Positions 214 through 27,105 of a DNA stretch of 64,000 bases are shown here, in pieces. The translations under genes and the position numbers were made by a program. This DNA comes from Andreprevotia chitinilytica DSM 18519 (GTDB lineage: Bacteria > Pseudomonadota > Gammaproteobacteria > Burkholderiales > Chitinibacteraceae): positions 163,934 to 227,933 of the forward strand of contig NZ_JONM01000001.1 of assembly GCF_000711875.1 (NCBI RefSeq), in the 5' to 3' direction. Below the pieces are notes generated by a model. That model was not told where the DNA came from, made no database searches, and saw only the letters and a program-made list of their open reading frames with translations. Numbering within the stretch: the first letter of the stretch is position 1; every line of letters starts with the position of its first letter.

Positions 214-1380
214 ATGAAGATTCTTTCCATATTTGGTACTCGCCCGGAGGCGATCAAGATGGCGCCGCTGGTGCGTGCGCTGGGCCACACAGCCGGCATC
301 GAATCGGTGGTGTGCACCACCGGCCAGCATCGCAGCATGCTGGAACAGGTGATGGGGATGTTCGATATCCAGGCCCATCACGATCTGGATGTCATGGTCG
401 CCAATCAAAGCCTCAATGGCCTGTGCGAGCGCCTGTTTGCCAAGATCGATCCGATGCTGGATGCCGTTCGCCCGGATCGGGTGCTGGTGCATGGCGATAC
501 CAGCACGGCGATGGTGGCCGCGATGGCCGCGTTCCAGCGCCGCATTCCGGTGGCTCACGTTGAGGCGGGTCTGCGTACCGGTGATCTCTCCCAACCGTGG
601 CCGGAAGAGATGAACCGCCGCGTGATCGACGTGGTGAGCGACTACCTGTTCGCACCCACAGCCGGATCGCGTGACAACCTGCTGGAAGAAAACCTCGCCG
701 GCCGCATCGTCGTCACCGGCAACACCGTGATCGATGCGCTACGCCACACCGCCACCCGCATCGAACGTGATCCGAAGCTGTGCGCCAAGCTCGATTCCTA
801 CCTGCCATTCCGGCCGCGCAATCGCAAGATGCTGCTGGTCACCGGCCACCGCCGCGAGAATTTCGGCGCGGGTTTTGCGCAGATTTGCGATGCGCTGGCT
901 CATCTGTCGCGCCGGCCGGATATCGATATTGTCTACCCGCTGCACCTCAACCCGAACGTACGCGGCCCAGTCCGCGCCACCTTGGCCGGGCTGCCCAATG
1001 TGCACCTGATCGAACCGCTGGATTACCTGAGCTTCGTGCGGCTGATGCAGCAAGCCCACGTGATCCTGACCGACTCGGGCGGCGTGCAGGAAGAAGCGCC
1101 GTCGCTGGGCAAACCGGTGCTGGTGATGCGCGATGTGACCGAACGCCCGGAAGCGGTTGCGGCCGGCACGGTGCGCCTCGTCGGCACCGACAGCGCCCGC
1201 ATCGTCGCCGCCGTCAACGAGTTGTACGACCAGCCCGACGTGCATCAGCAATTCGCTACGGTGCGCAATCCCTACGGCGATGGCCATGCCTCGGCTCGCA
1301 TCATCGCGGCCCTCACTGGCCAGCCCTTCGACGAATTCGGTAGCCCACAGCACAGCGATGCAACGTGCCAGCCCGCCTGA
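214..1380 (+). CDS. wecB: UDP-N-acetylglucosamine 2-epimerase (non-hydrolysing)
   Basis: ATG at 214 inside TTG-initiated ORF 169..1380; N-terminus MKILSIFGTRPEAIKMAPLV and HGDTSTAM / TGNTVIDAL motifs typical of WecB/MnaA family. Confidence 0.9.
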   Translation: MKILSIFGTRPEAIKMAPLVRALGHTAGIESVVCTTGQHRSMLEQVMGMFDIQAHHDLDVMVANQSLNGLCERLFAKIDPMLDAVRPDRVLVHGDTSTAMVAAMAAFQRRIPVAHVEAGLRTGDLSQPWPEEMNRRVIDVVSDYLFAPTAGSRDNLLEENLAGRIVVTGNTVIDALRHTATRIERDPKLCAKLDSYLPFRPRNRKMLLVTGHRRENFGAGFAQICDALAHLSRRPDIDIVYPLHLNPNVRGPVRATLAGLPNVHLIEPLDYLSFVRLMQQAHVILTDSGGVQEEAPSLGKPVLVMRDVTERPEAVAAGTVRLVGTDSARIVAAVNELYDQPDVHQQFATVRNPYGDGHASARIIAALTGQPFDEFGSPQHSDATCQPA

Positions 1381-1417
1381 TTCAGCCCGACTCCTTTTCA
1401 TTTGCGCGGACGAAAAC

Positions 1418-3649
1418 ATGACACCCTCTTTCAGGACTACCCCCAGTGCTACGGCATTGCGGCGCGATATCTCCGTACTCGGGCTGATTGCCTATTTGAC
1501 CCTTACCGGCTCCGCCTGGGCGGCCAGCGGCGCGGCACAGCAATTCCAGCAATGGGCGGACGATCACTGGGTTAGCCGGCAGGTCAGCCTCGCCGAACTG
1601 GGCTTTGTGCGCCCGACGGTGCTCACCGGCTCGGACAAACAAAGCGAAATCTATCTACCCGTGCCGGCCGGTGTGCCGCTGGCGGATGCCACGCTGCAGT
1701 TCAACGCCAAGTACCTGCGTGCCGACGGTGGCCGCACTTCGATGACGCTGGCGGTAGATGGCTACCCGGTGGCCGCCCGCAGCCTGACCGAAGCGCAAGG
1801 CGATGCCAGCCAGTCGGTCGGCATCGACGGCCTGCCGCGTGCCGGTGGTTTTGTCCGCTTCGGCATCACGTGGTCGTCGATCGTGTCCGAGCTGATGTGC
1901 ACCGATCAACGCGCACCCGGCAACTCGCTGCAAGTCGCGCCGGATTCGCGTTTCAGCTACCGCTACGACCGCAACGCGATCAAAACGCTGACGACGGCCT
2001 GGAGCGCGCTGCCGCCTGCGCCGGTATTGCTGGTCGCTGCGGGGGCACTTGCGCCGGCGTCGTATGACACCGCATGGCGCGTTGGCGTGACGTTGGAACG
2101 CGCCGGCAAGCGGGTGCAGTTGCGGGCGCTGCCAGCCGTTGGCGATACGGTCAATCTGAGCAAGCTCAACGTACCGGCCAGCTTGCGCAGCATCCCGGCC
2201 TTTGCCGCGCTGGCGAGCGGCGAAGCGCAGCACCACATCAAGAACGATGCCGAGCGGGGCGCGCTGATTGCCTTGGGGAATCAAGGCCCGCTGCGTGCCG
2301 ATCTGGTCGTCAACGACCAAGCCTTGCAGGACGGCCTACGCAAGTCGCTGGATGCGCTGAATACCGAGATCAAAGCATCCGCCCCGGATGCCGCTGCGGC
2401 CTACACCGCTTGGCAAGCCAGCGCCTCGCCTTTGTTGGGGCAACTGCCCGGCAAGGATCAAGTGCAGTTGTCGGCGCTGGCCGGCAACCCGGTGATCGCT
2501 GTTGCCGGTGATGCGGGTGCCAAGGTGGCCGGGCTGTTCGGCAACCTGTGGCGGCCGGTAGCGCAGGGCAAGGCGTTGACGATCAACGCGGCCACCGCGC
2601 CAGAAAAGGGCGATGCCACGGTGTTGTTGTCTCAGTTCGGTGGCACCGCCGGCACGCTGGACGTGATCGCCCGCGCCGACCGCAGCGCCACCTTCGATAT
2701 CGGTGCCTTGGGCGCGGATGGCAGCTTGCCGACCGAGATCGTCTTCGATGTCTCCGCCGCGCCGAATACCGGTGGCGAAGCGCCTGTGGCCTCGATCTTC
2801 CTGAACGACTTTCTGCTGGGGGCCGAACACCTGCGCGCCGATGGCCGCCCGCAACGGATTTCCGCCGTGATCCCGCGCTATGCCCTGGCTGCCCGTAATG
2901 AAATCCGCATCGCCTTCTTGCGCCAGCCGACGCAACTGCGCTGCCACGATCAGCCGACGGCTTTCCCGGTGTCGCTGCTACCCAGCAGCCATCTGCGCCT
3001 GAAGAAAATCGCCGCTGGCAATGATTTCGTCGGCATGGCCGGCCGGTATGCCGGTGACAGCAGCGTGTTGGTGCCGGCCGGTTGGTTGAACAGCTCGGCC
3101 ACCAGTTTGCCGCTGGTGATCCGGCTGGCCGATGCCGCTGGCGTTTCGCCGGAACGCGCCGCGTTGCAGCTGGCAAAAGCCGGCGAGGAGGCCAAGCCTG
3201 AACACGCCTTCCTGGCCTTCGATACCGCCCTGGCCGACGTGAAACCCGCCGTGACTGCCCGCAACGGCAGCCTGGTTTTGACGGCGGAAGCCAAGGAGCC
3301 GGTGCTGTCGCTGAACGGGCTGGATCGGGTCGCGACGGTTGAAGTCGTCACCGCCGCAGGCGAGACCGGCATCCTTTACCGCACCGTCGGCCAGGCCGCG
3401 CCAACGCTGGATCAACCGTTCCGCCTGACGCATGGCAACGTGGCTGTATTAGGTGACGGCGGCCCGGTATCGCAGCTGGATACCAACGACCCGACCGGCA
3501 GCAAGCTCGCCAAGGAGGGCAACCCGCAGTCGCTGTGGGAAAGCCATATGACCTTGTGGCTGGTGATTATGGGGGTGGTGGCGTTCGTGTTGATTGCGGC
3601 TCGGGTGGCGCAGGTTCGGCGGCGCAAGGCGGGTGGGGAAGGGCATTAA
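1418..3649 (+). CDS. BcsB-like periplasmic polysaccharide-synthase subunit (N-terminal signal/anchor, C-terminal TM helix + RRRK tail)
   Basis: ATG at 1418 in frame of ORF 1157..3649 just after wecB stop; signal-like ISVLGLIAYLTLTGSAWAA; C-terminus SHMTLWLVIMGVVAFVLIAARVAQVRRRK matches BcsB architecture; family assignment from memory, not a search. Confidence 0.55.
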   Translation: MTPSFRTTPSATALRRDISVLGLIAYLTLTGSAWAASGAAQQFQQWADDHWVSRQVSLAELGFVRPTVLTGSDKQSEIYLPVPAGVPLADATLQFNAKYLRADGGRTSMTLAVDGYPVAARSLTEAQGDASQSVGIDGLPRAGGFVRFGITWSSIVSELMCTDQRAPGNSLQVAPDSRFSYRYDRNAIKTLTTAWSALPPAPVLLVAAGALAPASYDTAWRVGVTLERAGKRVQLRALPAVGDTVNLSKLNVPASLRSIPAFAALASGEAQHHIKNDAERGALIALGNQGPLRADLVVNDQALQDGLRKSLDALNTEIKASAPDAAAAYTAWQASASPLLGQLPGKDQVQLSALAGNPVIAVAGDAGAKVAGLFGNLWRPVAQGKALTINAATAPEKGDATVLLSQFGGTAGTLDVIARADRSATFDIGALGADGSLPTEIVFDVSAAPNTGGEAPVASIFLNDFLLGAEHLRADGRPQRISAVIPRYALAARNEIRIAFLRQPTQLRCHDQPTAFPVSLLPSSHLRLKKIAAGNDFVGMAGRYAGDSSVLVPAGWLNSSATSLPLVIRLADAAGVSPERAALQLAKAGEEAKPEHAFLAFDTALADVKPAVTARNGSLVLTAEAKEPVLSLNGLDRVATVEVVTAAGETGILYRTVGQAAPTLDQPFRLTHGNVAVLGDGGPVSQLDTNDPTGSKLAKEGNPQSLWESHMTLWLVIMGVVAFVLIAARVAQVRRRKAGGEGH

Positions 3650-3667
3650 GCACCACCGCACCGCATT

Positions 3668-3712
3668 GCTCCCCTCGCCCGCTTGCGGGAGAGGGGCCGG
3701 GGGAGAGGGCAA
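3668..3712. repeat. REP-like palindrome, family A (ctcccctcgccc..gggagaggggccggggg)
   Basis: motif recurs at ~8363, 24835, 33058, 56468. Confidence 0.6.
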
Positions 3713-3810
3713 TCTGCTCCTTATTCGCGGCGGAGTCCCGAGTCACATTGCCCGATGGGTTATGGCCGTTGGCCTAACCCATCCTATGCGCAGGCGCATT
3801 ACCAACTCCG

Positions 3811-3881
3811 TAGCCCGGACGGCTTGCCGGCCGGGGTGACGCCGGTGGAAAGCCCCCGGCCGGCAAGCCGTCCGGGCTACG
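3811..3881. repeat. REP-like hairpin, family C (tagcccggacggcttgccggccgggg ... ccccggccggcaagccgtccgggctac)
   Basis: long perfect inverted repeat; same arms recur at ~26712, 30496, 54350. Confidence 0.65.
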
Positions 3882-3951
3882 GGATGTGCGACACGCGAGC
3901 AGTTTCCGACATCACAAACGCCGCAAAGAAAACCCAAACAGGCCCCAAATC

Positions 3952-6114
3952 ATGGATCAGATCACCGCCCAACCCTGGCAAATCTACTTCGCCCACTACT
4001 ACAGTGCGCTGGAATCGTTCGCTGCCGTTGCAGCGGTGTTGATCCTGATTTCCAGCCTCGATGACCTGTTCATCGACGCCTGGTACTGGACCCGCGAGAT
4101 CTACCGCAAGCTCACGGTGAAGCGGGCCAACAGCTACAAGCCGCTCACCGCTGCGCAACTCAAGGCGCGGGCCGAGCAGCCGCTGGCGATCATGGTGCCG
4201 GCGTGGCTCGAATACGATGTGATCGCGCAGATGATCGAGAACATGGTCACCGTGCTCGACTACCGCAGCTATGTCGTCTTCGTCGGCACCTACGTGAATG
4301 ACGCCGCCACCATCGCCGAAGTCGAGCGCATGCGTCGCCGCTATCGCCAGCTCAAGCGCGTGGAAGTGCCGCATCCGGGCCCGACCTGCAAGGCGGACTG
4401 CCTCAACTGGATCATCCAGGCCATCTTCCTGCACGAGCAGGAAAACAACATGGAATTCGCCGGGGTGATCTTGCACGACAGCGAAGACGTGCTGCACCCG
4501 ATGGAGCTGCAGTTCTTCAATTACCTGCTGCCCCGCAAGGACATGATCCAGTTGCCCGTCACCTCGCTGGAGCGCGAGTGGTACGAGCTGGTGGCCGGCA
4601 CTTACATGGATGAGTTCGCCGAATGGCACGCCAAGGATCTGGTGGTGCGCGAGAGCGTGTCCGGCATGGTGCCGTCGGCCGGGGTGGGCACGTGCTTCTC
4701 GCGCCGGGCGCTCAAGGCGCTGTCGGATCAGACCAATAACCAACCCTTCAATACCGAGAGTCTGACCGAAGACTACGACGTCGGCGCACGCTTGGCCGAG
4801 CTGGGTATGAACTCGATCTTTGCCCGCTTCCCGGTGCAGTTCCGCGCCCTGCGCAGCAGCTGGTTCGGCTTTGGCCGCACGCGTGAACTGACGCTGGATA
4901 TGGCGCTGTGCGTGCGCGAATACTTCCCGGATACCTTTCGCACCGCCTACCGGCAAAAGGCGCGCTGGGTGCTCGGCATCGGGCTGCAGAGCTGGGAGCA
5001 CTTGGGCTGGCGCGGTTCGCTCGCCACCAAGTACCTGTTGTTTCGCGATCGCAAAGGCATCATCACCTCGTTCGTGAGCATCTTTGCTTATCTGCTGTTC
5101 TTCCAGTTCATGCTGCTGTACGTCGCCACCCTGACGGGGGTGTGGACGATGCGTTTTCCGCCGATCTTCGCACCCGGCAGCTGGCTGATGGCCGTCGCCA
5201 CATTCACCGCCGTGGCGCTGGGCTTGCGCGTGGTGCAGCGCTTTTACTTCGTTACCAAGCTCTATGGCTGGGAACACGGGCTGATGTCGATCCCGCGCAT
5301 GGTGGTCGGCAACGTGATCAATTTCATGGCCGTGGCGCGGGCGTGGCGCATGTTCCTGGCGTATCTGTTGTTCGGTAAACGCATGGTGTGGGACAAAACC
5401 ATGCACGACTTTCCATCCTCATCCCAACTGGCGCAAAAGCGGCAACGGCTGGGTGAATTGCTGCTGGCGTGGCAAGCCGTGGATGCCGACAAACTCGAAG
5501 CCGCGCTGGTCGATCAGGCGCAGCACAAAGCGCCGCTCGGCCGCATCTTGCTGGCCAAAGGCTGGCTGGATGACGAAACGCTGGCCGAGGCGATTTCCTT
5601 TCAGGCTGAGCTGCCCCGCGCGCAAGTCGATGCCGAGCAACTGCGCGCCAATGCCGAGCTGCTGCCGGAAGAATATTGCGTGCGCTGGCGTACCTTGCCG
5701 ATTGGCCAGTCGGACGACGGATTGCTGCAGCTCGCCGTTGCCAACCCGCTATCCGACGAAGCCATCGAACAGATTCGCACCGCCACGGGGTGCGATATCG
5801 CCCAGCACATCGCCCGGGAAAGCGAAATCGGCGCCGGCCTGCGCCTGCTGCGTGGCAGCGAGACGGTATTTGAAGCGATCGGCAGGCCGTTAATTGGTGA
5901 TGTGCTGATCGAACACAACCTCATCAGCCGCGAGCAGTTCGACGATGCGCTGGTGGCCTACCGCCCGGATCGGGATGGCCGCATTGGCGATTATCTCGTC
6001 CAGCGCGGTGTGGTTTCGCGGGCATCGATCGAGCTGGCGATCAAGGAACAGCAGGCGAGGGCGGTTGCGCCGCAGCTCGTCCGCTTCGATGACGAGGAAC
6101 CGCTGCCGGTATGA
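3952..6114 (+). CDS. nfrB: NfrB-like GT2 glycosyltransferase/synthase with C-terminal tandem MshEN (c-di-GMP-binding) domains
   Basis: ATG at 3952 (MDQITAQPW). ISGLDDxFID, LAIMVPAW, PGPTCKADCLN, ILHDSEDV, SAGVGTCFSRRAL, VREYFPDTF and KARWVLGI align with E. coli NfrB from memory. C-terminal RLGELLLAWQAVDADKLEAAL and LGRILLAKGWLDDETLAEAI fit the MshEN RLGxxLLxxGxLxxxxLxxAL consensus; two further degenerate copies follow. Confidence 0.85.
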   Translation: MDQITAQPWQIYFAHYYSALESFAAVAAVLILISSLDDLFIDAWYWTREIYRKLTVKRANSYKPLTAAQLKARAEQPLAIMVPAWLEYDVIAQMIENMVTVLDYRSYVVFVGTYVNDAATIAEVERMRRRYRQLKRVEVPHPGPTCKADCLNWIIQAIFLHEQENNMEFAGVILHDSEDVLHPMELQFFNYLLPRKDMIQLPVTSLEREWYELVAGTYMDEFAEWHAKDLVVRESVSGMVPSAGVGTCFSRRALKALSDQTNNQPFNTESLTEDYDVGARLAELGMNSIFARFPVQFRALRSSWFGFGRTRELTLDMALCVREYFPDTFRTAYRQKARWVLGIGLQSWEHLGWRGSLATKYLLFRDRKGIITSFVSIFAYLLFFQFMLLYVATLTGVWTMRFPPIFAPGSWLMAVATFTAVALGLRVVQRFYFVTKLYGWEHGLMSIPRMVVGNVINFMAVARAWRMFLAYLLFGKRMVWDKTMHDFPSSSQLAQKRQRLGELLLAWQAVDADKLEAALVDQAQHKAPLGRILLAKGWLDDETLAEAISFQAELPRAQVDAEQLRANAELLPEEYCVRWRTLPIGQSDDGLLQLAVANPLSDEAIEQIRTATGCDIAQHIARESEIGAGLRLLRGSETVFEAIGRPLIGDVLIEHNLISREQFDDALVAYRPDRDGRIGDYLVQRGVVSRASIELAIKEQQARAVAPQLVRFDDEEPLPV

Positions 6115-8330
6115 CCCGCTTATCCACTTACACCCGAACTCAATCGCGCCATCTGGTGGGCTGCCTGTTCGCCCTGACCGTAGCCAGCGCATTTGCCGAT
6201 GAACTGCCACTGACCGGGCCGGCGTATCAGGTTGCCAACGAGGCTTACCAAGCCTACGACCGGGGTGATTACCCGACCGCGATTCAGAACGCCCGCGAAG
6301 CCATCCGCCTGCGGCCTGACGTGGCGCGGCTCAAGGTCTTGCTGCGCAATGCACAGGCGGCAGCGAACAAGCGCTCGGTACGCAAGGCCGTGAAACCCGT
6401 CCAGCCTTCGACCGCGCCGCAGCTGGTATCACCGGTGCAAGCCAAGCTGGCAGAGATCATCCGCCTGCAGCACGCCGGCCAATTCGACGATGCTTTGCGC
6501 TTAGCCGACGAAACGCTCGCCAGCGACGGCCCGAATGACGCGGTGAGCGCGCAACGCGATCTGCTGCGCCGGCAATTGGCACTGGCCGCCGCCGGACGTG
6601 CGTATGAGGCGCTGTCAAAACAAGTCTGGCCGGAGGCGGCTACCGCAGCGAAGGCCGCCATCGATTACGCGCCGGGCGTGATGTCCTACCGTTTGCTATT
6701 GATCGATGCGCTGTTGCGCGATCAACAGAACCCGGCTGCCGAAGCCGCCGCCACGGCCGCCATCGAACGAGACGGCAACGACATCACCCCGCTGCTGATG
6801 CGCGCCTATGCCAAACAAGCGCAAGGCAATCGCGCCGGGGCGAAGGACGACTATGTGCTGGCAGGCAACCGCCAACTGGATGCAAAAGCCAGCCGCAATC
6901 TCTCCCTGATCATGGCCGACGCTGCCTTGGCGGCGGGTGAGGGCGCAACAGCGCTGGATGCCTTGCTGGCGATCGATTCACCCGATGCCGATGTAGCCGA
7001 ACGCCGCAAACTGGCCGAGCTACAGGTGGTCAACCCTGGCGACAATGCACTGCACACGGCCCTCGTGCCGCCAACGCTCAATTGCAAGACCGTGGCCGAC
7101 GCGACCGAGTGCACGGCGCGGCTTGCCAGCAATCCGCAATATTCGCTCGCCGCCGCAGCGTACAAAGCGATGGCCGCGCGCGATTACGCCGAAGCGGTCG
7201 CCAAAGCGCGTGCCTTGGTGATGATCGCGCCGGATAACGGCAGCTACCTGCAGTTGCTGATCAGCGCCTTGGCGGCGAACAGCGAGCAAGCCGAATCCCG
7301 CCGCTATGCCCGCGCTGCACTCGCCCGTTTTACCGATCTATCAGACGTGGAACGTGCCTATCTGGCCTTGGCCGCCGACGACACAGCGGCCGCCCATCAA
7401 GCCTTTAACCGCGCTGATGCTGCCCAGCAATTGCCGGCCAAAGCGCTGCTGGATGCCGCCTACACCGCGCAACGGGCCGAGGCGCTGCCGGACGCCAGCC
7501 ATTACTTCCGCGAGGCGATTGATGCGAATGACGCAGGCAGCCTGGAATTCGCGCCGCAAGCCCTGTTCGATACCCGCCGTGCCGTCGCCGATCTGGAACG
7601 CCGCTGGGGGGCGTATACCTCCCTCAGTTATCGTGGTGCGGGCGGCTTGACCGGCGTCGCCCCGACCAATCCACAAAGCGACAGCCTGTATTGGGGCGGG
7701 GAAGTGTTCTGGCGTCCGCTCGCACTCGCCGGCAACGGGACTTACGTTGATTTCTACGCCCGCCTGTTCGATTCGCTCTACAGCAAGGCTGGCTACGCCA
7801 CCGGCTCGGCCAGCCTGCAAGGCGCAGTCGGTGCGCGCTGGAAGCCGCTGACCGAGCAAAACCTCACCTTCGCGTTCGAACGCCTGATCCGCCTTGGCGA
7901 TGCCAGCCAATCCGATTGGCTGGCGCGGGTCGGCTATTCGCTCGGCGAAGGTACTGATTTGCGTGTGGATGCGGCGTCGTGGTGGACAGCAGACGTAAAT
8001 GCCGAAGCCGGCCATTACTTCGAAGCCGGCACCCGCTACGCCACATCCGAATGGCGTGCCGGCCGCAGCTACCGTATGCCCGTCATCGACATCGGTTCCG
8101 CCAAAGCCGTGGTCTGGCCGCATGCCGTGCTCGGTATCGACTACAGCTCCGCCTTTGCTACCCGGCAGGCGATTGGCGCGGGCGTCGGCGTGAACGTGCG
8201 CTACTGGTTCCGTGAGGATCACTACACCGCACCGCGTTCGTACTTTGATCTTTCGATGCACTACCGCATCAAGGTGTCTGGTGATGAGCGAGGGAGCGGG
8301 TTCTTTTTGCGGGGGATTTTTTATTATTGA
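6111..8330 (+). CDS. nfrA: NfrA-like outer-membrane TPR / beta-barrel polysaccharide export protein
   Basis: ATGA overlap with nfrB stop; signal peptide; Ala-rich TPR-like body; C-terminal beta-barrel-like segment ends in aromatic residues (RGIFYY) and resembles NfrA/BcsC/PgaA C-termini. Confidence 0.75.
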   Translation: MTRLSTYTRTQSRHLVGCLFALTVASAFADELPLTGPAYQVANEAYQAYDRGDYPTAIQNAREAIRLRPDVARLKVLLRNAQAAANKRSVRKAVKPVQPSTAPQLVSPVQAKLAEIIRLQHAGQFDDALRLADETLASDGPNDAVSAQRDLLRRQLALAAAGRAYEALSKQVWPEAATAAKAAIDYAPGVMSYRLLLIDALLRDQQNPAAEAAATAAIERDGNDITPLLMRAYAKQAQGNRAGAKDDYVLAGNRQLDAKASRNLSLIMADAALAAGEGATALDALLAIDSPDADVAERRKLAELQVVNPGDNALHTALVPPTLNCKTVADATECTARLASNPQYSLAAAAYKAMAARDYAEAVAKARALVMIAPDNGSYLQLLISALAANSEQAESRRYARAALARFTDLSDVERAYLALAADDTAAAHQAFNRADAAQQLPAKALLDAAYTAQRAEALPDASHYFREAIDANDAGSLEFAPQALFDTRRAVADLERRWGAYTSLSYRGAGGLTGVAPTNPQSDSLYWGGEVFWRPLALAGNGTYVDFYARLFDSLYSKAGYATGSASLQGAVGARWKPLTEQNLTFAFERLIRLGDASQSDWLARVGYSLGEGTDLRVDAASWWTADVNAEAGHYFEAGTRYATSEWRAGRSYRMPVIDIGSAKAVVWPHAVLGIDYSSAFATRQAIGAGVGVNVRYWFREDHYTAPRSYFDLSMHYRIKVSGDERGSGFFLRGIFYY

Positions 8331-8362
8331 TCGGTTGGCGTTCTCAAACGCCCTCGGGTTTT

Positions 8363-8500
8363 CTCCCCTCGCCCACTTGTGGGAGAGGGGCCGGGGGTGA
8401 GGGTCGTGCAACCTTCAATGACCTTGCTGGCACCCTCTCTCTAACCCTCTCCCACTGTCCCTGAACAAGGCAAAGCCTTGCACGGGATGTGAGAGGGGAG
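8363..8500. repeat. composite REP/MITE-like element (family A head + conserved ~90-bp tail)
   Basis: near-identical ~140-bp composite also at 33058..33200 (same order: REP, gtgca..caatg, ccctctc..tgtccctgaa.aaggc.aaagccttgcacggga). Confidence 0.6.
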
Positions 8501-8654
8501 AAAACCCCAACGTCGCGCGACTCTTTCCTTTCGCCTTCGTGTGCAAGGTTTTAACTTTGCCCTGCTATGGCCGGAAGAGGTCTCGGGGCGAGGGCGCAAC
8601 ACGCAATTGCGCTAAGCTGCCAAACACCTACTCGCGCATCCCCCATTCCCGCTC

Positions 8655-9503
8655 ATGCCAAACCGCCTGCTTGCCCTGTGTTGCCTCATGGTGAGCTCCC
8701 TCTCGCTCTCCGCCTGCCAAACCCCACCCCATGCCCCGGTACACATCGCTGGCATCGCATGGCAACCCGACAACGCAACCGCCAATCCCAAAGGCACATG
8801 GGATCGGCTCGGCGCGCATACCTTATTGGTGCAATGGACTACAGTCAGCGGCAGTGCCTTTATTGCAGGCTGCGGCGGCGCGCCGGTACCGGTACTGCCA
8901 GATTGGCAACGCATCGCCCAAGAACCTTGGGCGCAGGATGTCATTCTCGGGCTGGCTGGCAAGTTCGACGAGGCAGAAGCCCGCAATTCACTGGATAGCC
9001 TGATCGCCCAATCGCGTTGCCTTGCCGCGCAGCCCACGCCGCTGCATGTGGTTGGTTGGTATTTCCCGGTCGAAGTCGATCCCACCTGGCAAGACGCCAG
9101 CAAACTCGGCCCGCTTCTGGCACAACTGCCACGTCCGCTGTGGATCAGTGCCTACGACAGTGCCAACCTCGGCCCCGCCGAACTCGGCAACTTTCTAGCG
9201 ACATGGCTGCCGGCGGATGTCGGCGTGTTCTTTCAGGATGGCGTTGGTGTTTACGCTCGCGAACCCCGCGTTGCGCTCGACTACGTGAATGCGCTGGAAA
9301 AACGCCTTGGCAAAGCCCGCCTCCGCCTCATCGCCGAAGCCTTCCGCCCGCAAATCGGCGGCGGTTTCCGGGCGGCAACGCCAGCCGAACTCACGGCGCA
9401 GCTTGCCAACTATGGCGGTCGGGATGTGTATCTGTTCGATGGGCCGCATTACGTGAGCGACGAAACTGTTGAAGTGCTGCGGGCATCGCTGCAGCTTCCT
9501 TGA
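8655..9503 (+). CDS. hypothetical lipoprotein (lipobox LSAC); possible polysaccharide-active TIM-barrel hydrolase by context only
   Basis: ATG at 8655, signal+LSAC lipobox; no motif recognised. Confidence 0.5.
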   Translation: MPNRLLALCCLMVSSLSLSACQTPPHAPVHIAGIAWQPDNATANPKGTWDRLGAHTLLVQWTTVSGSAFIAGCGGAPVPVLPDWQRIAQEPWAQDVILGLAGKFDEAEARNSLDSLIAQSRCLAAQPTPLHVVGWYFPVEVDPTWQDASKLGPLLAQLPRPLWISAYDSANLGPAELGNFLATWLPADVGVFFQDGVGVYAREPRVALDYVNALEKRLGKARLRLIAEAFRPQIGGGFRAATPAELTAQLANYGGRDVYLFDGPHYVSDETVEVLRASLQLP

Positions 9504-9605
9504 TCAGTATGACCCAGCGTATTTCGGAGGACGGGTATAGCAAGCCCAACTCGTCCTCCGGATCATGATGCTGGTGGCATCGCCTGCAAATGCGATGCCA
9601 TCAGG

Positions 9606-10376
9606 TCAGGCATCAACCAGCACAGCTACGTTATTCGTGCCGGAGTGTGCCGCGACCGAAAAGAAATATTTCATCTCAACCGTTCTGTCATCGTCACCAC
9701 GCTGAGGCTGATTTGCCGGGTTATCAGCAATGTTGAAATCGTCATTAACAAACCCAAGAAAATAGGCAATCAGTTTTGCATGCGCTGGTTGCAGGCTGCC
9801 GACACCGAAAGCCATATGCAGAATCTGGCTTGAGGTAATTCTTGTCTTCCCCGAAAAGAAACCACCCCATTTCCGCTCCAGCGGCTTGCCGGCTTCATAC
9901 AGTTCTTTGCGGTTGCGGGCGGCATCAATATCGGCGCCGTCGAAGCCAAAATCGGCAATTGCCCGAATGAGCAATTGGCCCGGCGCGGAGTTCAAGTCAT
10001 CAGGAAGTCGCGACAACAACCAACGCTCGGCCTGCGCCGTAATGGGGTAATGAATGCCACCACCACAGCCAAAATCAGCCGAGCGGACATTGGCCGGGCA
10101 GTTGGCGCAGTGGCCGGCCAACGCTTCCAACGGCGCAGCCTCGGCAAGCAAGTCGGCAATTCGCATCTCGGTTTCTTGCGGCCCGTTTGGCCCCAGCACG
10201 ACAGCTTTGAAAGTCCACTCCGATTCCGGTTTGTCCGTGGCGGTCTGTGGATTGTTGCGCATCAAGTCCAGCACTGCGTTGGCTCGATTGCGGGCCTTCT
10301 CCATTCTGAGTAGATCAGCATCGGAGATCGTCTCGCGAACCTTGCAGGGGAACAGACCGTAGTAATCAATTGCCAT
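9606..10376 (-). CDS. hypothetical protein with Cys cluster (CANCPAN..CGGG)
   Basis: ATG confirmed at 10376; no recognisable family. Confidence 0.5.
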   Translation of the reverse strand: MAIDYYGLFPCKVRETISDADLLRMEKARNRANAVLDLMRNNPQTATDKPESEWTFKAVVLGPNGPQETEMRIADLLAEAAPLEALAGHCANCPANVRSADFGCGGGIHYPITAQAERWLLSRLPDDLNSAPGQLLIRAIADFGFDGADIDAARNRKELYEAGKPLERKWGGFFSGKTRITSSQILHMAFGVGSLQPAHAKLIAYFLGFVNDDFNIADNPANQPQRGDDDRTVEMKYFFSVAAHSGTNNVAVLVDA

Positions 10377-10656
10377 TGAAAATCCTTTGTAACGATCAGG
10401 GAAGGGTAGTCGATGCCTAATGTATTAGAGGGGGGCGATTGTGGATAGCCCAGCCCGTAGGGCGTAATCCCCGCAGGGCATTGCGCCGCGTTATTGCCTG
10501 GAATAAAAATGGCTGATTGGCTACCCAGAGGGCCGATCATTCTGCCATGCGAAGCATATACTTGATGCCCCAATTGACGGTAATGAAGTCGCCTTTGCCT
10601 TTCATTACGATGATCGAGCTGCGGCGCAATGCCCTGCGGGGATTGCGCCCTACGAG

Positions 10657-11043
10657 TTATGGGCTTTCTGCAAAATTCAGCTCGACCCCATTGCCTGCCG
10701 GGTCAGAGCAGAATATTTGATGTTGACCAGTTAACGGTACAAGGCCACTTTGGTAGCTGATATTGAATTCACTTAAACGAGTTTCAAATGCTGGTAAGTC
10801 AGTGCATGAAAATGCGACATGATCGAATGTGTTGAGCATATTTATCAGACGCTTTTCATCTGGTCCCGCTTCAGTAAGGTGAAGTACATCTTGGTGTCCG
10901 ATATAGAGCCAATAGCCGAAGCTACTGAACGGCGGCCGATAGCCAAGGTGCAAGCCAATTATATTCACGTAGAAATCGCAGAGCACATCAAGCATCGGGC
11001 GGTCTGCGCGAAGGTTGTAGTGATTGAATCCGGTAATGGGCAT
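10657..11043 (-). CDS. VOC-family (glyoxalase/bleomycin-resistance/dioxygenase) protein
   Basis: ATG at 11043; 128 aa with paired beta-alpha-beta-beta-beta modules typical of VOC fold (HYNLRAD.., HVAFSCTD..). Confidence 0.6.
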   Translation of the reverse strand: MPITGFNHYNLRADRPMLDVLCDFYVNIIGLHLGYRPPFSSFGYWLYIGHQDVLHLTEAGPDEKRLINMLNTFDHVAFSCTDLPAFETRLSEFNISYQSGLVPLTGQHQIFCSDPAGNGVELNFAESP

Positions 11044-11051
11044 GGCGTGAT

Positions 11052-11849
11052 TTAGGTCGCTTGGTCATCTTCGGGAAGGTAGAACCAATCCCGGTTTAGA
11101 TCATCCGATTGAAGAGATTGCTCATCAATGATTAGATCAAAAGGCAAAACGCCCTGTTTTGCAAGAAGGGTATATGCCTCTAACGCATACTTGTGCGCAT
11201 AATCTTCTTTCTCTGTTCGAGTTTTTTGATCCCATTCATCTTCGGTACTGCGCTGGTAGTCGACATGATGCCCGAGCTCATGCAGTAGTGTGCGATACAA
11301 GGCAGTGTTGCGTAATGAAGTCGGCGTCACGCGGATTTCCAGACCTCGTCGCGTATTGCGAACTTCGTGTCCATCTCGACGTAACCGTTCAAGCTCGCGA
11401 GTCAGTTCAGGATCGATTGATTTTCCCCATCCAATTGGACTAAGGTCTTGCGCCTCAATAACAATTGCCGGGCCGCTGTATTGATTGATATCGAAGAAAA
11501 AAATTGCACGTCCCCAAACAGGACTCAGGATGCGCTGCTTGCGAGTCGGCTGGCGCATAACGATGAGATCAAATGCAGCAAGCGCTTCAGGAGGGCAATG
11601 CGACAGTACCTTGCAAATGTCGTCTACGGTACATGGATAAAACCAATCGGGCTTCGTTGGCTCGATGAAGAAATGGAAATCACGCTCAGCAATTGTGCGA
11701 GTAATCACTTTGAACGCGTTTAGGTTCTCATAGAATCGTTTAGGTTGATGCCATGATTCAGGAATGGTCAGCTTATTGTTTGATCCATACCCTTGCGCTT
11801 TCGTGCCAATATTCCTGTTTCTGCGAGTTGGGTTCCAGCCTGGGCGCAT
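11052..11849 (-). CDS. HExxH-motif protein (putative zinc metallopeptidase-like), function unknown
   Basis: ATG at 11849 chosen because the longer TTG ORF (to 12245) overlaps upstream gene end; LLHELGHHVDY motif. Confidence 0.5.
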   Translation of the reverse strand: MRPGWNPTRRNRNIGTKAQGYGSNNKLTIPESWHQPKRFYENLNAFKVITRTIAERDFHFFIEPTKPDWFYPCTVDDICKVLSHCPPEALAAFDLIVMRQPTRKQRILSPVWGRAIFFFDINQYSGPAIVIEAQDLSPIGWGKSIDPELTRELERLRRDGHEVRNTRRGLEIRVTPTSLRNTALYRTLLHELGHHVDYQRSTEDEWDQKTRTEKEDYAHKYALEAYTLLAKQGVLPFDLIIDEQSLQSDDLNRDWFYLPEDDQAT

Positions 11850-12040
11850 GTGGTTATCCAGAAATTTGGTTACTGATTCATTTTGTCCGCTTGGGACTGG
11901 CGATGCGTTATGAATGCGAGTCAGGTGAAGAGCGGCAATCAGCTTCGATTCAATGGTATGCAATATACGGGAGTCTCCGGGCAAAACAAAACCGCTCCCG
12001 AATTCGGGAGCGGTTCTGCCACCAAGCTGCAGTGCCTGCC

Positions 12041-13801
12041 TTACCAGCCCAGGTAGTAAGTCCGATTCAGCCAGCTTGGCCACGCCATATCGAACCATTC
12101 TTGCAACATCAGTTCGGTGACGCAGAACGCGCCTTCCACCCAGCCTTGCGCATCGGAATAGGCCTCGCCGGTGATATGGATGCTCTCCGTCGGTTTGGGG
12201 CGGCGCATGTACGGCATGATGTCTTTCACCGACACGTGCGCGCACCAGGCGTGGTAGCCGCCGCCGTACGGGTCTTCGGTCCAGTCTTGCAGGCGGGCGA
12301 TGTAGGGGTCGGGAATCTGGTTTTGCGGGCCGTGCAGTTCACGCACTTGTCGCATGGCTTCTTCCACCATGGCCTTGGGCACCGGGTCGCCCGGCAGGCG
12401 GGTTTGGCCGTGCCAGCTGGTGATTTGCGCTTGCGAGACCAGCCGGGTGGGGCGGGTTTCGTAGGTGGCGAGTGTGGCGCGGTTGCGCATCAGCACTTGC
12501 CAGAACGGCACGGTGCGCATGTCGTTGTAGCTGGAGAGGAACAGCGAGTGGCTGTTCTTGGGGTCGACGCCGAAGTAGTAGCACTGCCGCATCGGCAGAT
12601 CGGTGACGGATTCGCCGGAGGTCGCACCGAAGTCTTCTGTCCACCACGGTTCATCGAAGCCCATCAGCAGCTTGAACGACGGCTCCATGATCACCGAGGC
12701 GATGTTCTTCTGCAGTTCCCTGGCGGTTTCCTTGTGGAAGAAGAAGTTCTGCTGGTCCAGCAGTTCCAGCGAGCGGCGCGGCATGGCCAGTACGATGGTG
12801 TTGGCGCGTACGTGCCAGTGATATTTGCCCTGCTCGTTCCAGAAGGTGAGCTGGTAACGGTAGCCGGTGTCGTCCGCGCGTGTGAAGGTTTCCAGGCGGT
12901 TTTCCAGCCACAGTTGCGAGCCGGATAGTCCGGTATAAGCCTGCGCCAGCGCGTAGGCGATCTGGTCGTAGCCATCCTTGATGGTGCGGTATTCGGTGCC
13001 GGCGTTGGAGAAGTCCCCGACCATGTACGGGAAGGCTTCGGCGGCGTTCCAGTTGATGGTGTTGGAGTAATAGCCGCCAGCATCGGCGAGGAAATCATAG
13101 GCATCCTGGCCGACCCGGTCGTTGATCAGGTTCCAGAAACCGATGTTGTTGACCTTCATGCCGTTGAACGGGCTGTCGGCAAAACAGTAGGTCAGCTCGG
13201 GCTTGATCTCATTCCATTGCCGGCTGGTGAGGCGGAAGTTGTAGATGTATTCGCCATCCTTTTGCACGAAGGACGAATAGTTCTCGGCGAACCACGGGTC
13301 GGCCATCAGCACGTCGTAAACGATCTTGTTGAAGAGCTGATCCGGGCTGAAGCCGTCCTGCCCCGGCTTGAAGGTGTAGCGCACCGGGAATTTCTCGCCC
13401 TTGGCCTGGGCATCGGTCCACGCATCGGCGTGGAAGCGCTGGCAGCGCAGGTAGAAATACAGATCGGCCGGATCACCCATCGGGAAGTCGTCGTAGGGGA
13501 GCTTGAAGACGTTCTGGATCAGCGAGGTGACCATTTCCTGCGAGGTCATGTAGCGCATGCCGCCCAGCTCGCCGATCACATCCATGCCCGGCAGTTTGAT
13601 CGACAGCAGCCGCCCGCCGATCCGGTCGGCCAGATCGAATACGTGCACGCTGGCAGGGCGTTGGCCGTCCGGTTTGAACTCGCCGCCGAGCAGCCGCCAG
13701 CCGGTGTACAGGCCGGATACGCCTGCGCCGATCACGGCGACGTCGATTTCCAGATTCGGCTGGCTGCCGGTGCTGTGAGGGATGTCGTTGAGCGTGATCA
13801 T
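12041..13801 (-). CDS. flavin-containing amine oxidase family protein (L-amino-acid/tryptophan-oxidase-like)
   Basis: ATG at 13801 (MITLNDIP); dinucleotide fold VAVIGAGVSGLYTGWRL, RIGGRLLS, GELGGMRY motifs. Confidence 0.7.
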   Translation of the reverse strand: MITLNDIPHSTGSQPNLEIDVAVIGAGVSGLYTGWRLLGGEFKPDGQRPASVHVFDLADRIGGRLLSIKLPGMDVIGELGGMRYMTSQEMVTSLIQNVFKLPYDDFPMGDPADLYFYLRCQRFHADAWTDAQAKGEKFPVRYTFKPGQDGFSPDQLFNKIVYDVLMADPWFAENYSSFVQKDGEYIYNFRLTSRQWNEIKPELTYCFADSPFNGMKVNNIGFWNLINDRVGQDAYDFLADAGGYYSNTINWNAAEAFPYMVGDFSNAGTEYRTIKDGYDQIAYALAQAYTGLSGSQLWLENRLETFTRADDTGYRYQLTFWNEQGKYHWHVRANTIVLAMPRRSLELLDQQNFFFHKETARELQKNIASVIMEPSFKLLMGFDEPWWTEDFGATSGESVTDLPMRQCYYFGVDPKNSHSLFLSSYNDMRTVPFWQVLMRNRATLATYETRPTRLVSQAQITSWHGQTRLPGDPVPKAMVEEAMRQVRELHGPQNQIPDPYIARLQDWTEDPYGGGYHAWCAHVSVKDIMPYMRRPKPTESIHITGEAYSDAQGWVEGAFCVTELMLQEWFDMAWPSWLNRTYYLGW

Positions 13802-15000: not shown

Positions 15001-15236
15001 TCCTCTGTCTGTTTTGGTTCTGGATTCGCTCTCGGCAAACGTACTTGTTTGGGAAAGCACTTACTCGCTCCGAAGCAAAACTTAGTTTGGATATGAACCC
15101 ATTTCAAACTGTTTTAGAAAGAAATATTTATTAAATAAGAAAGAAATTGATAATAAATTCACTTACTAAGCTGACAATTTTGTGTGTTATTTTGCTCGGC
15201 AAAGCACATCGGCCAATCAGCGAAGGCGGCACAAAG

Positions 15237-16181
15237 ATGAAAATCCTCTACACCCTCTTGCTCACCCTGACGGTTGTGCTGGGCACCAGTCACGCCGCGC
15301 TTGCTTGCACGGTGCCGCCGCCGCTGCAATCGATCGATCCGCCCGGCTTTTACGACGACCCCGCCGGCTACGAGCAGGCGGTGAAGCCCATGCGTGCTTT
15401 CATCGATCAACTCAACAAGGCGGCAGATGCCAGGCAGTGGACTTGCGTACTCGACCTGCTGGAAGGTTGGGCACGCGCCGATGCTTTGATGGGGCCGATC
15501 AGCGGATATCAGGGCTACTACGAGCGCTCCTGGGCCGGGACGGATTTCGCGTTCGTGCTGTTACGTCTGCTTAAAGACGGGCAAGGGGAGGGCGCGAATC
15601 GCCTTGCTGCCATCACCCCGTGGCTGACCCGCATCGCCATCGCAACGCGTGATGCCGATGCCATCAACCATTTGCACAACAATCTGGTCTACTGGGCCGG
15701 GCTGAATCTGGTCGCGATCGGTACGGTGGCGCAGCAGCAGGATCTGATCGACGCCGGAATTGCACGGGCGCGTGAAGGGATTCACGACATCGGCCCGCAT
15801 GGCGAATTGCAACGGGAACTCAAGCGCGGCGAACGGGCGCTGCACTATCACGTCTTCTCATTGCTGCCACTGGTTTTCACGGCTGAATTGGTGCAGCGGC
15901 AAGGCATCGATCTCTATGCCGAGAATCAAAATGCCATCGGCCGTCTGGCCAATCTGGTGATCAATGCGGTGCAGAACCCGGCCAGCTTTGCAACGGTCTC
16001 GCCGGTCGCGCAGACGCTGTTCCCCTGGACATTTCAAGATGAACTCGCGTGGGTGGAGCCCTATTACACGCGTACCGGCGACAGCCGCTTGCCGCCGCTC
16101 ATGGCACCGCGCCGCCCTTTTAGCGAATGGCGGCTTGGCGGCAATGTCACTGCGGCTTGGGGCGGCACCTTGCCGCATTGA
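15237..16181 (+). CDS. polysaccharide lyase family 5 (AlgL-like alginate lyase) periplasmic protein
   Basis: ATG at 15237 with signal peptide; HNNLVYWAGL matches PL5 NNHSYW catalytic motif. Confidence 0.65.
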   Translation: MKILYTLLLTLTVVLGTSHAALACTVPPPLQSIDPPGFYDDPAGYEQAVKPMRAFIDQLNKAADARQWTCVLDLLEGWARADALMGPISGYQGYYERSWAGTDFAFVLLRLLKDGQGEGANRLAAITPWLTRIAIATRDADAINHLHNNLVYWAGLNLVAIGTVAQQQDLIDAGIARAREGIHDIGPHGELQRELKRGERALHYHVFSLLPLVFTAELVQRQGIDLYAENQNAIGRLANLVINAVQNPASFATVSPVAQTLFPWTFQDELAWVEPYYTRTGDSRLPPLMAPRRPFSEWRLGGNVTAAWGGTLPH

Positions 16182-24787: not shown

Positions 24788-24880
24788 TTGATATTCGTAG
24801 GAGCGAGCTTGCAAAGGAAGCTGCATGTTGCATGACCCTCTCCCCCGGCCCCTCTCCCACAAGTGGGCGAGGGGAGTCGT
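24788..24880. repeat. REP cluster (family D half-copy + family A copy)
   Basis: tcgtaggagcgagcttgc ... accctctcccccggcccctctcccacaagtgggcgaggggag. Confidence 0.55.
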
Positions 24881-26649: not shown

Positions 26650-26812
26650 AACCTGGGCGAGCTTGCTCGCGATTGCAGCGCTTGAATCACAGCTATCGCT
26701 TGCGCAGACCCGTAGCCCGGACGGCTTGCCGGCCGGGGTTGGTGCAGCGCATCCATGCCGGATGCAACTTGCCCGCATTGCTACCCCGGCCGGCAAGCCG
26801 TCCGGGCTACGA
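26650..26812. repeat. REP cluster (family D half-copy + family C hairpin)
   Basis: gcgagcttgctcgcgat ; cgtagcccggacggcttgccggccgggg...ccccggccggcaagccgtccgggctacg. Confidence 0.6.
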
Positions 26813-27105
26813 GCTAACACGCCGAGCTTGCGGCCTTGACCGGGTCGAAGCGGCTGCGGAATACTTCGTCTCGTTGCGCGGTCGCGCAATCAGGATTGGC
26901 GTCCTGGATTAAGTACAGGCAGACAGCCGCTGCCCAGCGGCATTTTCATGTCTGCAACACCCGTGGTGCGTCTTCAATGGCGAGCCTGGGTGGGGGCATC
27001 TTCGGATGCACCGGTTCCCTGTACGCCGGCACGCCAACCCTGCCCAGTGCTTGCCACCTCCGATTGGCGTTGGAATGGTGAGCCATAACCTGTACAGGAG
27101 ACGCT

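Follow-up and report, generated by a model that had tools for sequence, protein, structure and literature searches.

The NfrB-NfrA-YbcH system of Escherichia coli K-12, which makes the glycan that phage N4 uses as receptor (Junkermeier & Hengge 2021; Sellner et al. 2021), is related to the locus described here. E. coli NfrB binds c-di-GMP (Kd ~1 uM) and loses function when its MshEN motif is mutated (PMC8669469, PMC8669472), and the wecB gene of ECA is used in trans (PMC8669469). The PGR locus of Acinetobacter baumannii (PgrA-G; PMC12507263, 2025) encodes an NfrB-like synthase and a BcsB homologue, PgrD, required for the phage receptor glycan and for adsorption of phage StAb3, alongside PgrF (WecB), PgrE (PgaB-C-terminal-like) and PgrG (an outer-membrane porin). 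An nfr cluster with a BcsB homologue has been reported from Achromobacter xylosoxidans (Sellner et al. 2021, Fig. S5; PMC8669472). There, and in the Stenotrophomonas, Paraburkholderia and Pseudomonas variants, wecB, the BcsB homologue, nfrB and nfrA are clustered, with alginate-type O-acetylation genes (AlgF-, AlgX- and MBOAT-like). Further points of comparison are BcsA-BcsB-BcsC, the cellulose machinery, and PgaABCD, the PNAG machinery, whose receptor is the PgaC-PgaD interface, unlike MshEN. Listeria Pss makes a c-di-GMP-dependent ManNAc polymer through the receptor PssE, in a Gram-positive cell without an outer-membrane exporter.

A probable five-gene Nfr/PGR-type locus

We analysed a window of 64,000 nucleotides from Andreprevotia chitinilytica, the first 9.5 kb of which probably holds an intact five-gene synthase-dependent exopolysaccharide locus of the Nfr/PGR type. 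The gene order on the + strand is wecB, bcsB-like, nfrB, nfrA, ybcH-like:

214-1380, + strand: wecB, UDP-GlcNAc 2-epimerase (non-hydrolysing); TIGR00236, Pfam Epimerase_2
1418-3649, + strand: BcsB-fold periplasmic subunit (ORF2); Foldseek, Pfam BcsB (N-terminal part)
3952-6114, + strand: NfrB-family processive GT2 synthase with C-terminal MshEN, 720 aa; NF012033
6111-8330, + strand: NfrA-type outer-membrane exporter; Pfam NfrA_C
8655-9503, + strand: YbcH (DUF4434)-family lipoprotein, the fifth gene; BLASTP, hhalign, NF007404

Each of the five ORFs is intact and, set against its homologues, full length. The original prediction described a tightly linked four-gene unit at 214-8330. Its four ORFs are all present on the + strand at those coordinates and keep their assignments, but the locus runs on beyond this range to the fifth gene. 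Tight linkage describes wecB/ORF2 (37 nt) and nfrB/nfrA (-4 nt, a genuine ATGA overlap at 6111-6114) but not ORF2/nfrB, which lie 302 nt apart; nfrA and the ybcH-like gene are separated by 324 nt.

The locus shares with E. coli Nfr a GT2 synthase combining DxD/TED/QxxRW with MshEN and a second MshE-type motif pair, an NfrA_C barrel exporter, the nfrB/nfrA overlap, a YbcH/DUF4434 protein after nfrA and a predicted WecB dependence. Set side by side by description, A. baumannii PGR has the same parts list, in another gene order and with a degenerate GGDEF protein (PgrA); no GGDEF/EAL gene (diguanylate cyclase) was found among the larger ORFs scanned from 9.5 to 37 kb of the Andreprevotia window. 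The O-acetylation module of the Achromobacter, Stenotrophomonas, Paraburkholderia and Pseudomonas variants is absent from the Andreprevotia locus, so a polymer without O-acetylation is predicted.

WecB scores 463 bits on TIGR00236 (cutoff 210), matches Pfam Epimerase_2 at E 1.5e-115 and falls far under the cutoff of the NeuC model. This equivalog score upholds the predicted UDP-GlcNAc 2-epimerase, which, from its family, would convert UDP-GlcNAc to UDP-ManNAc. In a gene-order comparison of the 80 closest species loci, wecB is linked to nfrB in 66.

The synthase carries two MshE-type motif pairs

The synthase contains the Pfam domains Glyco_trans_2_3, Glyco_tranf_2_3 and MshEN, with hydrophobic segments at about aa 16-44, 369-399 and 405-428. 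Its score on NF012033 is 1160 bits (cutoff 537), as against 663 on the E. coli NfrB model NF008411 (cutoff 1170), which places it in a sister subfamily and not in the enterobacterial NfrB orthologue group. Identity to E. coli NfrB is 42% over 628 aa. A blastn search of nfrB against E. coli genomes gave no match because the sequences are too divergent; the E. coli K-12 nfr locus used for comparison was taken by coordinates. The processive GT2 signatures DxD, TED and QxxRW are represented by HDSEDV, TED and QKARW, aligned with E. coli D169, D267 and W330 and kept in the 80 relatives.

Neither Pfam nor NCBIfam profiles detect a PilZ domain in the synthase. Its C-terminus scores 49.6 bits on Pfam MshEN (cutoff 23.1) and 86 bits on NF053729 (cutoff 38); this profile search, with matches to MshE and PilF, agrees with the earlier proposal that MshEN stands in place of PilZ. 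Two motif pairs lie in this region:

5446-5604, + strand: MshE-type tandem 24-residue c-di-GMP motif pair 1, aa 499-551; NF053729
5890-6051, + strand: second MshE-type motif pair, aa 647-700; NF053729

Pair 1 consists of RLGELLLAWQAVDADKLEAALVDQ (aa 499-522) and PLGRILLAKGWLDDETLAEAISFQ (aa 528-551), the two motifs quoted originally, with a 5-residue spacer. By itself it scores 54.9 bits on NF053729 (cutoff 38); it matches the solved Vibrio cholerae MshE N-domain (5HTL, E 8.8e-7) and also PilF/PilB, and it aligns with the L490/G491 and G519 region of E. coli NfrB. The second pair, LIGDVLIEHNLISREQFDDALVAY and RIGDYLVQRGVVSRASIELAIKEQ joined by the spacer RPDRDG, reaches 43.8 bits on the same model by itself (cutoff 38) and is kept in the 80 relatives; the second pair of E. 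coli NfrB scores 47.9 bits (NF053729). With these domains and motifs in place, Andreprevotia NfrB would, by analogy with the E. coli protein, be activated by c-di-GMP. Judged from its sequence, the second pair (aa 647-700) could be a second c-di-GMP site, giving cooperative or two-threshold control.

An NfrA_C barrel exporter

NfrA opens with a signal peptide ending AFA (before DE) and a helical region, and closes with a barrel (aa 563-734) that scores 182 bits on Pfam NfrA_C (PF13283; cutoff 25). The C-terminus of E. coli NfrA is matched at 25% identity (E 8e-13), the full proteins being 739 aa in Andreprevotia and 990 aa in E. coli. These results fit the outer-membrane barrel exporter assigned to the fourth gene and, with the 42% identity of the synthase, the kinship of genes three and four to E. 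coli NfrB/NfrA. TPR signals are weak (TPR_11 E 0.009, below cutoff; CTPR3 E 0.09).

A BcsB-fold partner beside an NfrB-type synthase

A PDB profile search with the ORF2 family found no sequence-level match; for the ORF5 family (the ybcH-like product) there was likewise none, and the search with E. coli YbcH did not rise above noise. Both families therefore called for comparison of folds. The AF2 model of ORF2 (pLDDT 86.7, pTM 0.83) was searched against the PDB with Foldseek: the best 22 matches are all BcsB (E 2.6e-24 to 2e-14), over ~740 aligned columns with TM 0.5-0.58, and the first match after this set drops to E 3e-7 and TM 0.1. Full-length matches, which include 9FMT, 6YG8, 7L2Z and 4HG6, are to BcsB structures only. 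ORF2 thus has the four-domain periplasmic BcsB fold (CBD-FD-CBD-FD), together with a signal peptide and, at the C-terminus, one hydrophobic helix (aa 706-734) followed by RRRK, in keeping with the predicted BcsB-like subunit with a C-terminal TM anchor.

Identity to BcsB is only 10-14%. Pfam BcsB (PF03170) is matched at 29.1 bits (GA 21) over profile positions 4-140 of 606, the N-terminal part only, and the NCBIfam BcsB model gives 16 bits (cutoff 972). The ORF2 family comprises 657 representatives at 50% identity; NCBI names homologues of ORF2 'BcsB'. When distant family members were named in search of a link to A. baumannii PgrD, only alphaproteobacteria emerged (for example, Niveispirillum and Rhodovarius). 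The partner is not cellulose synthase BcsA: the adjoining synthase is of the NfrB type in 78 of the 80 loci, and for this reason we call ORF2 BcsB-like, not BcsB.

The locus has in common with BcsA-BcsB-BcsC an inner-membrane processive GT2, a subunit of BcsB fold anchored by a C-terminal TM helix, an exporter of the TPR/barrel kind (its TPR part putative in Andreprevotia) and c-di-GMP activation, here predicted. It could accordingly be read as a cellulose/beta-glucan (Bcs-like) synthase that uses MshEN for PilZ and makes a glucan, not a ManNAc polymer; the fold of ORF2, the NCBI name of its homologues and GT2 catalytic motifs common to BcsA would all suit such an enzyme. We consider this very unlikely. 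The synthase scores above the cutoff of NF012033, the NfrB-family equivalog, and has no PilZ; BcsC, BcsZ, BcsQ, BcsE and BcsG are all absent, the exporter being NfrA_C and not BcsC; wecB is the first gene and is linked in 66/80 loci; and ORF2 belongs to a clade of its own, small at 657 representatives. The Nfr/PGR-type assignment is thus retained, with UDP-ManNAc as the presumed substrate.

A YbcH homologue follows nfrA

The product of 8655-9503 is homologous to E. coli YbcH across the whole domain: BLASTP gives 28% identity over 227 aa (E 2e-9), hhalign a probability of 96.7% (E 4.5e-10, 218 columns) and NF007404 E 4.9e-13. On Pfam DUF4434, whose archetype is E. coli YbcH (235 bits), the Andreprevotia protein scores 21.9 bits, below the GA of 30; among its close homologues, many do receive the Pfam assignment. 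It has a lipobox (LSAC), whereas E. coli YbcH is described as signal-anchored. The AF2 model (pLDDT 91.6) is a TIM-barrel of glycoside-hydrolase-like fold, for which Foldseek returns 4H41 (E 1e-6, TM 0.64) and the PgaB C-terminal domain (GH153; E 5e-4, TM 0.52); the deacetylase domain of the Pga system has no counterpart in Andreprevotia. E140 and E228 are invariant and align with Glu in E. coli YbcH. Fold and conserved Glu pair are in place, and by analogy with the PgaB C-terminal domain the lipoprotein would bind or trim the chain in the periplasm; it could be more than a passive scaffold and act there as a glycoside hydrolase via E140/E228.

The gene lies directly downstream of nfrA, as it does in E. 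coli and in 26-44 of the 80 loci, and a ybcH-like gene occurs in 51/80 related loci overall. The proposal that a BcsB-like protein replaces YbcH is contradicted by this homologue, and with it falls the idea of a novel hybrid, an Nfr system whose YbcH gave way to a BcsB subunit of the cellulose type. That idea drew on the BcsB fold of ORF2 and on the E. coli nfr operon, which, unlike the Andreprevotia locus, lacks a bcsB-like gene. Against it, bcsB-like and ybcH-like genes occur together in at least 49 of the 80 related loci, and the bcsB-containing layout, already published, is the usual one: the bcsB-like gene adjoins nfrB in 78/80. We give the hybrid almost no credence.

The complete order wecB, bcsB-like, nfrB, nfrA, ybcH-like is found in 44/80 loci (26 identical and 18 with an O-acetylation insert). 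Pseudomonas brassicacearum has the same five genes; in Stenotrophomonas, wecB, bcsB-like, nfrB and nfrA keep this order with O-acetylation genes downstream, and no ybcH-like gene was detected in the cluster. It could be that the ancestral machine had the full five genes, bcsB-like included, and that the enterobacterial three-gene operon is a reduced form of it.

A predicted machine for ManNAc polymer export

The Andreprevotia locus is best described as an ordinary copy of a widespread machine, predicted to synthesize and export a sugar polymer when c-di-GMP is present. UDP-ManNAc from WecB would feed inner-membrane NfrB, which would polymerize and translocate a ManNAc-containing glycan only while c-di-GMP occupies its C-terminal MshEN module. 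The BcsB-fold protein, held by its C-terminal helix, would sit beside the synthase and guide the nascent chain with its periplasmic carbohydrate-binding and flavodoxin-like domains, a role proposed by analogy with BcsA-BcsB and A. baumannii PgrD; NfrA would export the chain through its C-terminal barrel.

About the type of system the locus says little that is new: hundreds of proteobacterial species have the same cluster, and publications have already noted it. What it offers is a clean and minimal set of five genes, free of an O-acetylation module, in which to study the roles of BcsB-like and YbcH-like subunits in Nfr-type machines, the nature of the ManNAc-type polymer and c-di-GMP binding by the second MshE-type pair. 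Phages of E. coli and Acinetobacter use such glycans as receptors, and the locus therefore predicts a c-di-GMP-gated determinant of phage sensitivity in a chitinolytic betaproteobacterium. Three points would go beyond the published record: a functional second motif pair, an active YbcH/DUF4434 hydrolase and an ancestral five-gene layout. We rate these readings as rather unlikely.

Dispersed repeats in two intergenic spacers

Hairpin-forming elements lie in the bcsB-like/nfrB and nfrA/ybcH-like spacers:

3666-3710, no strand assigned: dispersed repeat, hairpin-forming core CCCCTCGCCC.CTTG.GGGAGAGGGGCCGGGGG; 4 window copies
3754-3783, no strand assigned: local stem-loop (MFE fold); single occurrence in the window
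3808-3882, no strand assigned: perfect 29-nt inverted repeat with a 17-nt loop, second repeat type; arms 3808-3836/3854-3882
8362-8404, no strand assigned: dispersed repeat, second copy, nfrA/ybcH-like spacer; repeat alignment

The ~42-nt core at 3666-3710 has further copies at 8365, 24842 (- strand) and 33060 (4 in the window versus 0 expected), and the 29-nt inverted repeat has a second copy at 26710-26812 (arms 26710/26784; 0 expected by chance). The two hairpins noted earlier at 3668-3881 are thus real dispersed repeats. The ORF2/nfrB spacer folds with z = -6.3. In 77 related loci the bcsB-like/nfrB gap has a median of 6 nt, and the repeat hairpins widen this junction to 302 nt here.

The promoter scan of the locus found no promoter-like site on the + strand, the terminator scan no enrichment and Rfam no RNA family within 1-10 kb. 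With the 302-nt and 324-nt spacers and their strong hairpins, a single transcript for all five genes is only a possibility. Taken further, the repeats at 3650-3950 and 8330-8655 might have left a split or decaying cluster, its operon broken into units that are regulated separately or are partly silent, and a machine that is not stoichiometric. The widened gap would fit, as would a 29-bp perfect stem 70 nt ahead of the nfrB start and the weak Shine-Dalgarno there, but the five ORFs are intact and the 3808-3882 stem has no T-run after it and so is not a canonical intrinsic terminator. REP elements in E. coli operons, moreover, typically modulate mRNA stability and do not abolish expression. We judge a split cluster unlikely. 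For the intact Nfr/PGR-type locus, hairpins inserted in two intergenic spacers may make the messages on their upstream and downstream sides differ in stability. The nfrB start is ATG 3952; GTG 3886 was rejected, lying directly after the 3808-3882 hairpin, and the alignment of homologues begins with MDQ at 3952.

Five genes encode both a BcsB-like protein and a YbcH homologue

The first 9.6 kb of the window (1–9.6 kb, plus strand) holds five ORFs in a single orientation, separated in cluster order by 37 nt, 302 nt, −4 nt and 324 nt, with nfrB and nfrA overlapping by an ATGA at 6111–6114.

Genes of the cluster, with the basis of each assignment
214–1380, plus strand: wecB (gene 1); TIGR00236
1418–3649, plus strand: bcsB-like gene (ORF2); fold model and partial Pfam BcsB match
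3952–6114, plus strand, ATG at 3952: nfrB synthase (gene 3); Pfam and NCBIfam
6111–8330, plus strand: nfrA exporter (gene 4); NfrA_C domain
8655–9503, plus strand: ybcH-like gene (ORF5); homology to E. coli YbcH

The first four lie on the plus strand, at the place originally predicted; the fifth (8655–9503) falls beyond the 214–8330 range of that prediction. Gene 1 scores 463 bits against NCBIfam TIGR00236 (cutoff 210), which upholds its assignment as a UDP-GlcNAc 2-epimerase; it is a bona fide WecB. Gene 4 had been read as a TPR plus β-barrel exporter. The barrel is borne out by Pfam NfrA_C (182 bits), with E. coli NfrA aligning to the final ~290 residues; for the TPR portion the sequence matches are weak.

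The Pfam BcsB match of ORF2 is partial (profile positions 4–140 of 606), and the profile of its family (56 homologues) matched no PDB sequence. An AlphaFold2 model built on the alignment of this family (pLDDT 86.7, pTM 0.83) bears out the predicted structural similarity to BcsB: in a Foldseek search of the PDB, BcsB chains (9FMT, 6YG8, 7L2Z, 9B8I, 5EJ1 and 4HG6) take all of the top 22 places, with E values of 2.6e-24 to 2e-14 over ~740 aligned columns and TM scores of 0.5–0.58 to E. coli BcsB chains. The first non-BcsB match follows at E 3e-7 and TM 0.1. With a signal peptide and one C-terminal transmembrane helix (706–734) followed by RRRK, the modelled topology is BcsB-like. The family comprises 657 representatives at 50% identity (E ≤ 1e-3), and is a compact clade whose sequences set it apart from canonical BcsB.

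ORF5 sits after nfrA, the same place as ybcH in E. coli. Pfam DUF4434 has E. coli YbcH as its archetype (235 bits) and is called in many ORF5 homologues at 55–65% identity. ORF5 itself matches NF007404 (E 4.9e-13) and E. coli YbcH (BLASTP, 28% identity over 227 residues, E 2e-9), and profile-to-sequence hhalign of its family against E. coli YbcH gives a probability of 96.7% (E 4.5e-10, 218 columns); these matches identify ORF5 as a YbcH homologue. Its model is a TIM barrel (pLDDT 91.6), closest to 4H41 (BT_0435; E 1e-6, TM 0.64), with the glycoside-hydrolase-like C-terminal domain of PgaB at E 5e-4 and TM 0.52. Two invariant glutamates at strand ends, E140 (FPVEVD) and E228 (IAEAF), align with Glu of E. 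coli YbcH, and a lipobox (LSAC) predicts a lipoprotein. YbcH has therefore not been replaced by the BcsB-like protein, as had been proposed; the latter is a subunit additional to YbcH, not its substitute.

NfrB carries two MshE-type motif pairs

Gene 3, a GT2 synthase, contains Pfam Glyco_trans_2_3, Glyco_tranf_2_3 and MshEN domains and scores 1160 bits against the NCBIfam equivalog NF012033 (cutoff 537). It shares 42% identity over 628 residues with NfrB of E. coli K-12, and scores 663 against the E. coli NfrB equivalog NF008411, under its cutoff of 1170. The catalytic signatures HDSEDV, TED and QKARW are present, and are kept across the 80 relatives whose loci we examined.

Motif pairs of NfrB
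aa 499–551: pair 1, RLGELLLAWQAVDADKLEAALVDQ, 5-residue spacer, PLGRILLAKGWLDDETLAEAISFQ
aa 647–700 (window 5890–6051): pair 2, LIGDVLIEHNLISREQFDDALVAY, spacer RPDRDG, RIGDYLVQRGVVSRASIELAIKEQ

The anticipated match of the synthase C terminus to MshEN profiles was recovered. On the NCBIfam model for MshE-related c-di-GMP motifs (cutoff 38) the pair 1 segment alone reaches 54.9 bits. The solved N-domain of Vibrio cholerae MshE (5HTL) matches the C-terminal region at E 8.8e-7, and PilF and PilB match it too. Pair 2 is a complete tandem 24-residue MshE-type pair at the extreme C terminus, scoring 43.8 bits alone on the same model (cutoff 38). It is kept across the 80 relatives and is present in E. 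coli K-12 NfrB (aa ~656–720, 47.9 bits), a family-wide feature of NfrB. Junkermeier & Hengge 2021 (PMC8669469) and Sellner et al. 2021 (PMC8669472) discuss pair 1 and not pair 2.

The cluster is most probably a c-di-GMP-gated, synthase-dependent secretion system. Its domains, folds and synteny are observed here; c-di-GMP activation, a ManNAc substrate and the subunit roles are proposed by analogy with E. coli Nfr, Bcs, Pga and Acinetobacter genetics. WecB would provide UDP-ManNAc, and c-di-GMP in the MshEN module would lead NfrB to polymerise and translocate the chain; the BcsB-like subunit would escort it through the periplasm, NfrA would export it, and the YbcH-like TIM-barrel lipoprotein may bind or trim it.

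The BcsB-containing layout is widespread

Scanning a single genome for each species gave at least 524 NfrB relatives, of which we examined the closest 80 (56–71% identity) with 10-kb flanks each.

Gene content of the 80 loci
BcsB-like gene directly upstream of nfrB: 78/80
nfrA near nfrB: 78/80
wecB near nfrB: 66/80
ybcH-like gene near nfrB: 51/80

The exact order wecB, bcsB-like, nfrB, nfrA, ybcH-like recurs in 26 of the 80, and 18 more have this order with an insert between nfrA and the ybcH-like gene, encoding AlgF-, AlgX- and MBOAT-like O-acetylation proteins in the examples checked. The downstream genes of a Stenotrophomonas locus are instead AlgX, AlgX, MBOAT and one for a carrier protein. 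Pseudomonas brassicacearum shares all five genes with the window. O-acetylation modules follow nfrA in Pseudomonas, Paraburkholderia and Stenotrophomonas relatives (comparison loci L028, 14652–16288; L019, 14547–21475; L001, 16195–20214), with alginate-type AlgF-like, AlgX-like and MBOAT parts, and an AMP-binding enzyme or carrier protein added in some; O-acetylated versions of the polymer are thus predicted there. The window locus, unlike many relatives, is without such a module.

Related clusters have been described. A survey of NfrB homologues in 406 species linked them to wecB and alginate-like acetylation clusters and reported "full nfrBA-ybcH operons" in Pseudomonas (PMC8669469). In Achromobacter xylosoxidans "a homolog of BcsB" and O-acetyltransferases cluster with nfrA, nfrB and wecB (PMC8669472). 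The PGR locus of A. baumannii, defined in 2025 (PMC12507263), comprises PgrC (NfrB-like), PgrD (BcsB homologue), PgrE (PgaB-C-terminal-like), PgrF (WecB homologue) and PgrG (porin), and deletion of pgrD abolished adsorption of phage StAb3 (PMC12507263). With BcsB-containing Nfr clusters published, the supposed hybrid is therefore a known architecture, though biochemically uncharacterised. The original prediction stands as observation, is supported in part as interpretation and is unsupported in its claim of novelty.

Dispersed repeats occupy the spacers

Among 77 relatives the bcsB-like stop and nfrB start lie a median of 6 nt apart (mostly −4 to +28). The 302 nt in the window are occupied by two dispersed-repeat types, in agreement with the hairpins predicted inside the operon at 3668–3881.

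Repeats and stem-loops
3666–3710, 8362–8404, 24842–24874 (minus strand), 33060–33092: repeat 1, ~42-nt hairpin-forming core, CTCCCCTCGCCC.CTTG.GGGAGAGGGGCCGGGGG.GAGGG
3808–3882, second copy 26710–26812: repeat 2, perfect inverted repeat with 29-nt arms
3754–3783: unique stem-loop

All four copies of repeat 1 in the 64 kb are apparently intergenic, and one (8362–8404) lies in the nfrA/ybcH-like spacer. RNA of the bcsB-like/nfrB spacer folds far more stably than shuffled controls (z = −6.3). No T-tract follows the large stem (3808–3882), which is thus not a canonical terminator.

Surroundings of the cluster

At 130–165, ~60 nt 5′ of the wecB start, a perfect 8-bp palindrome (TGTCAGCT-TGC-AGCTGACA) precedes a run of A. 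It could be an operator or leader hairpin; a consensus scan found no sigma-70-like promoter. The larger ORFs scanned at 9.5–37 kb included no GGDEF/EAL gene.

The stretch at ~9500–12000 is of low GC (48–52% versus ~63–66% in the operon) and holds two ORFs without a Pfam match (9606–10376 and 11052–12245, both minus strand) and a small glyoxalase-family gene (10657–11043, minus strand). This DNA adjoining the EPS locus was possibly acquired horizontally. An alginate-lyase-family (PF05426) protein is encoded at 15147–16181 (plus strand), ~5.6 kb 3′ of the cluster. A C4 antisense RNA (Rfam RF01695, 69.6 bits, E 1.8e-11), of a family from P1/P7-type phages, lies at 26973–27061 (plus strand), with the second copy of repeat 2 ~160 nt away; the ORFs flanking the RNA (a GH18-like protein and DUF1501/DUF1800) look chromosomal. 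Finally, a 1352-aa ORF (46225–50283, plus strand) has an unusual multi-protease architecture, combining trypsin-like, C92 permuted-papain and two AvrRpt2-type (Peptidase_C70/C39-like) domains.
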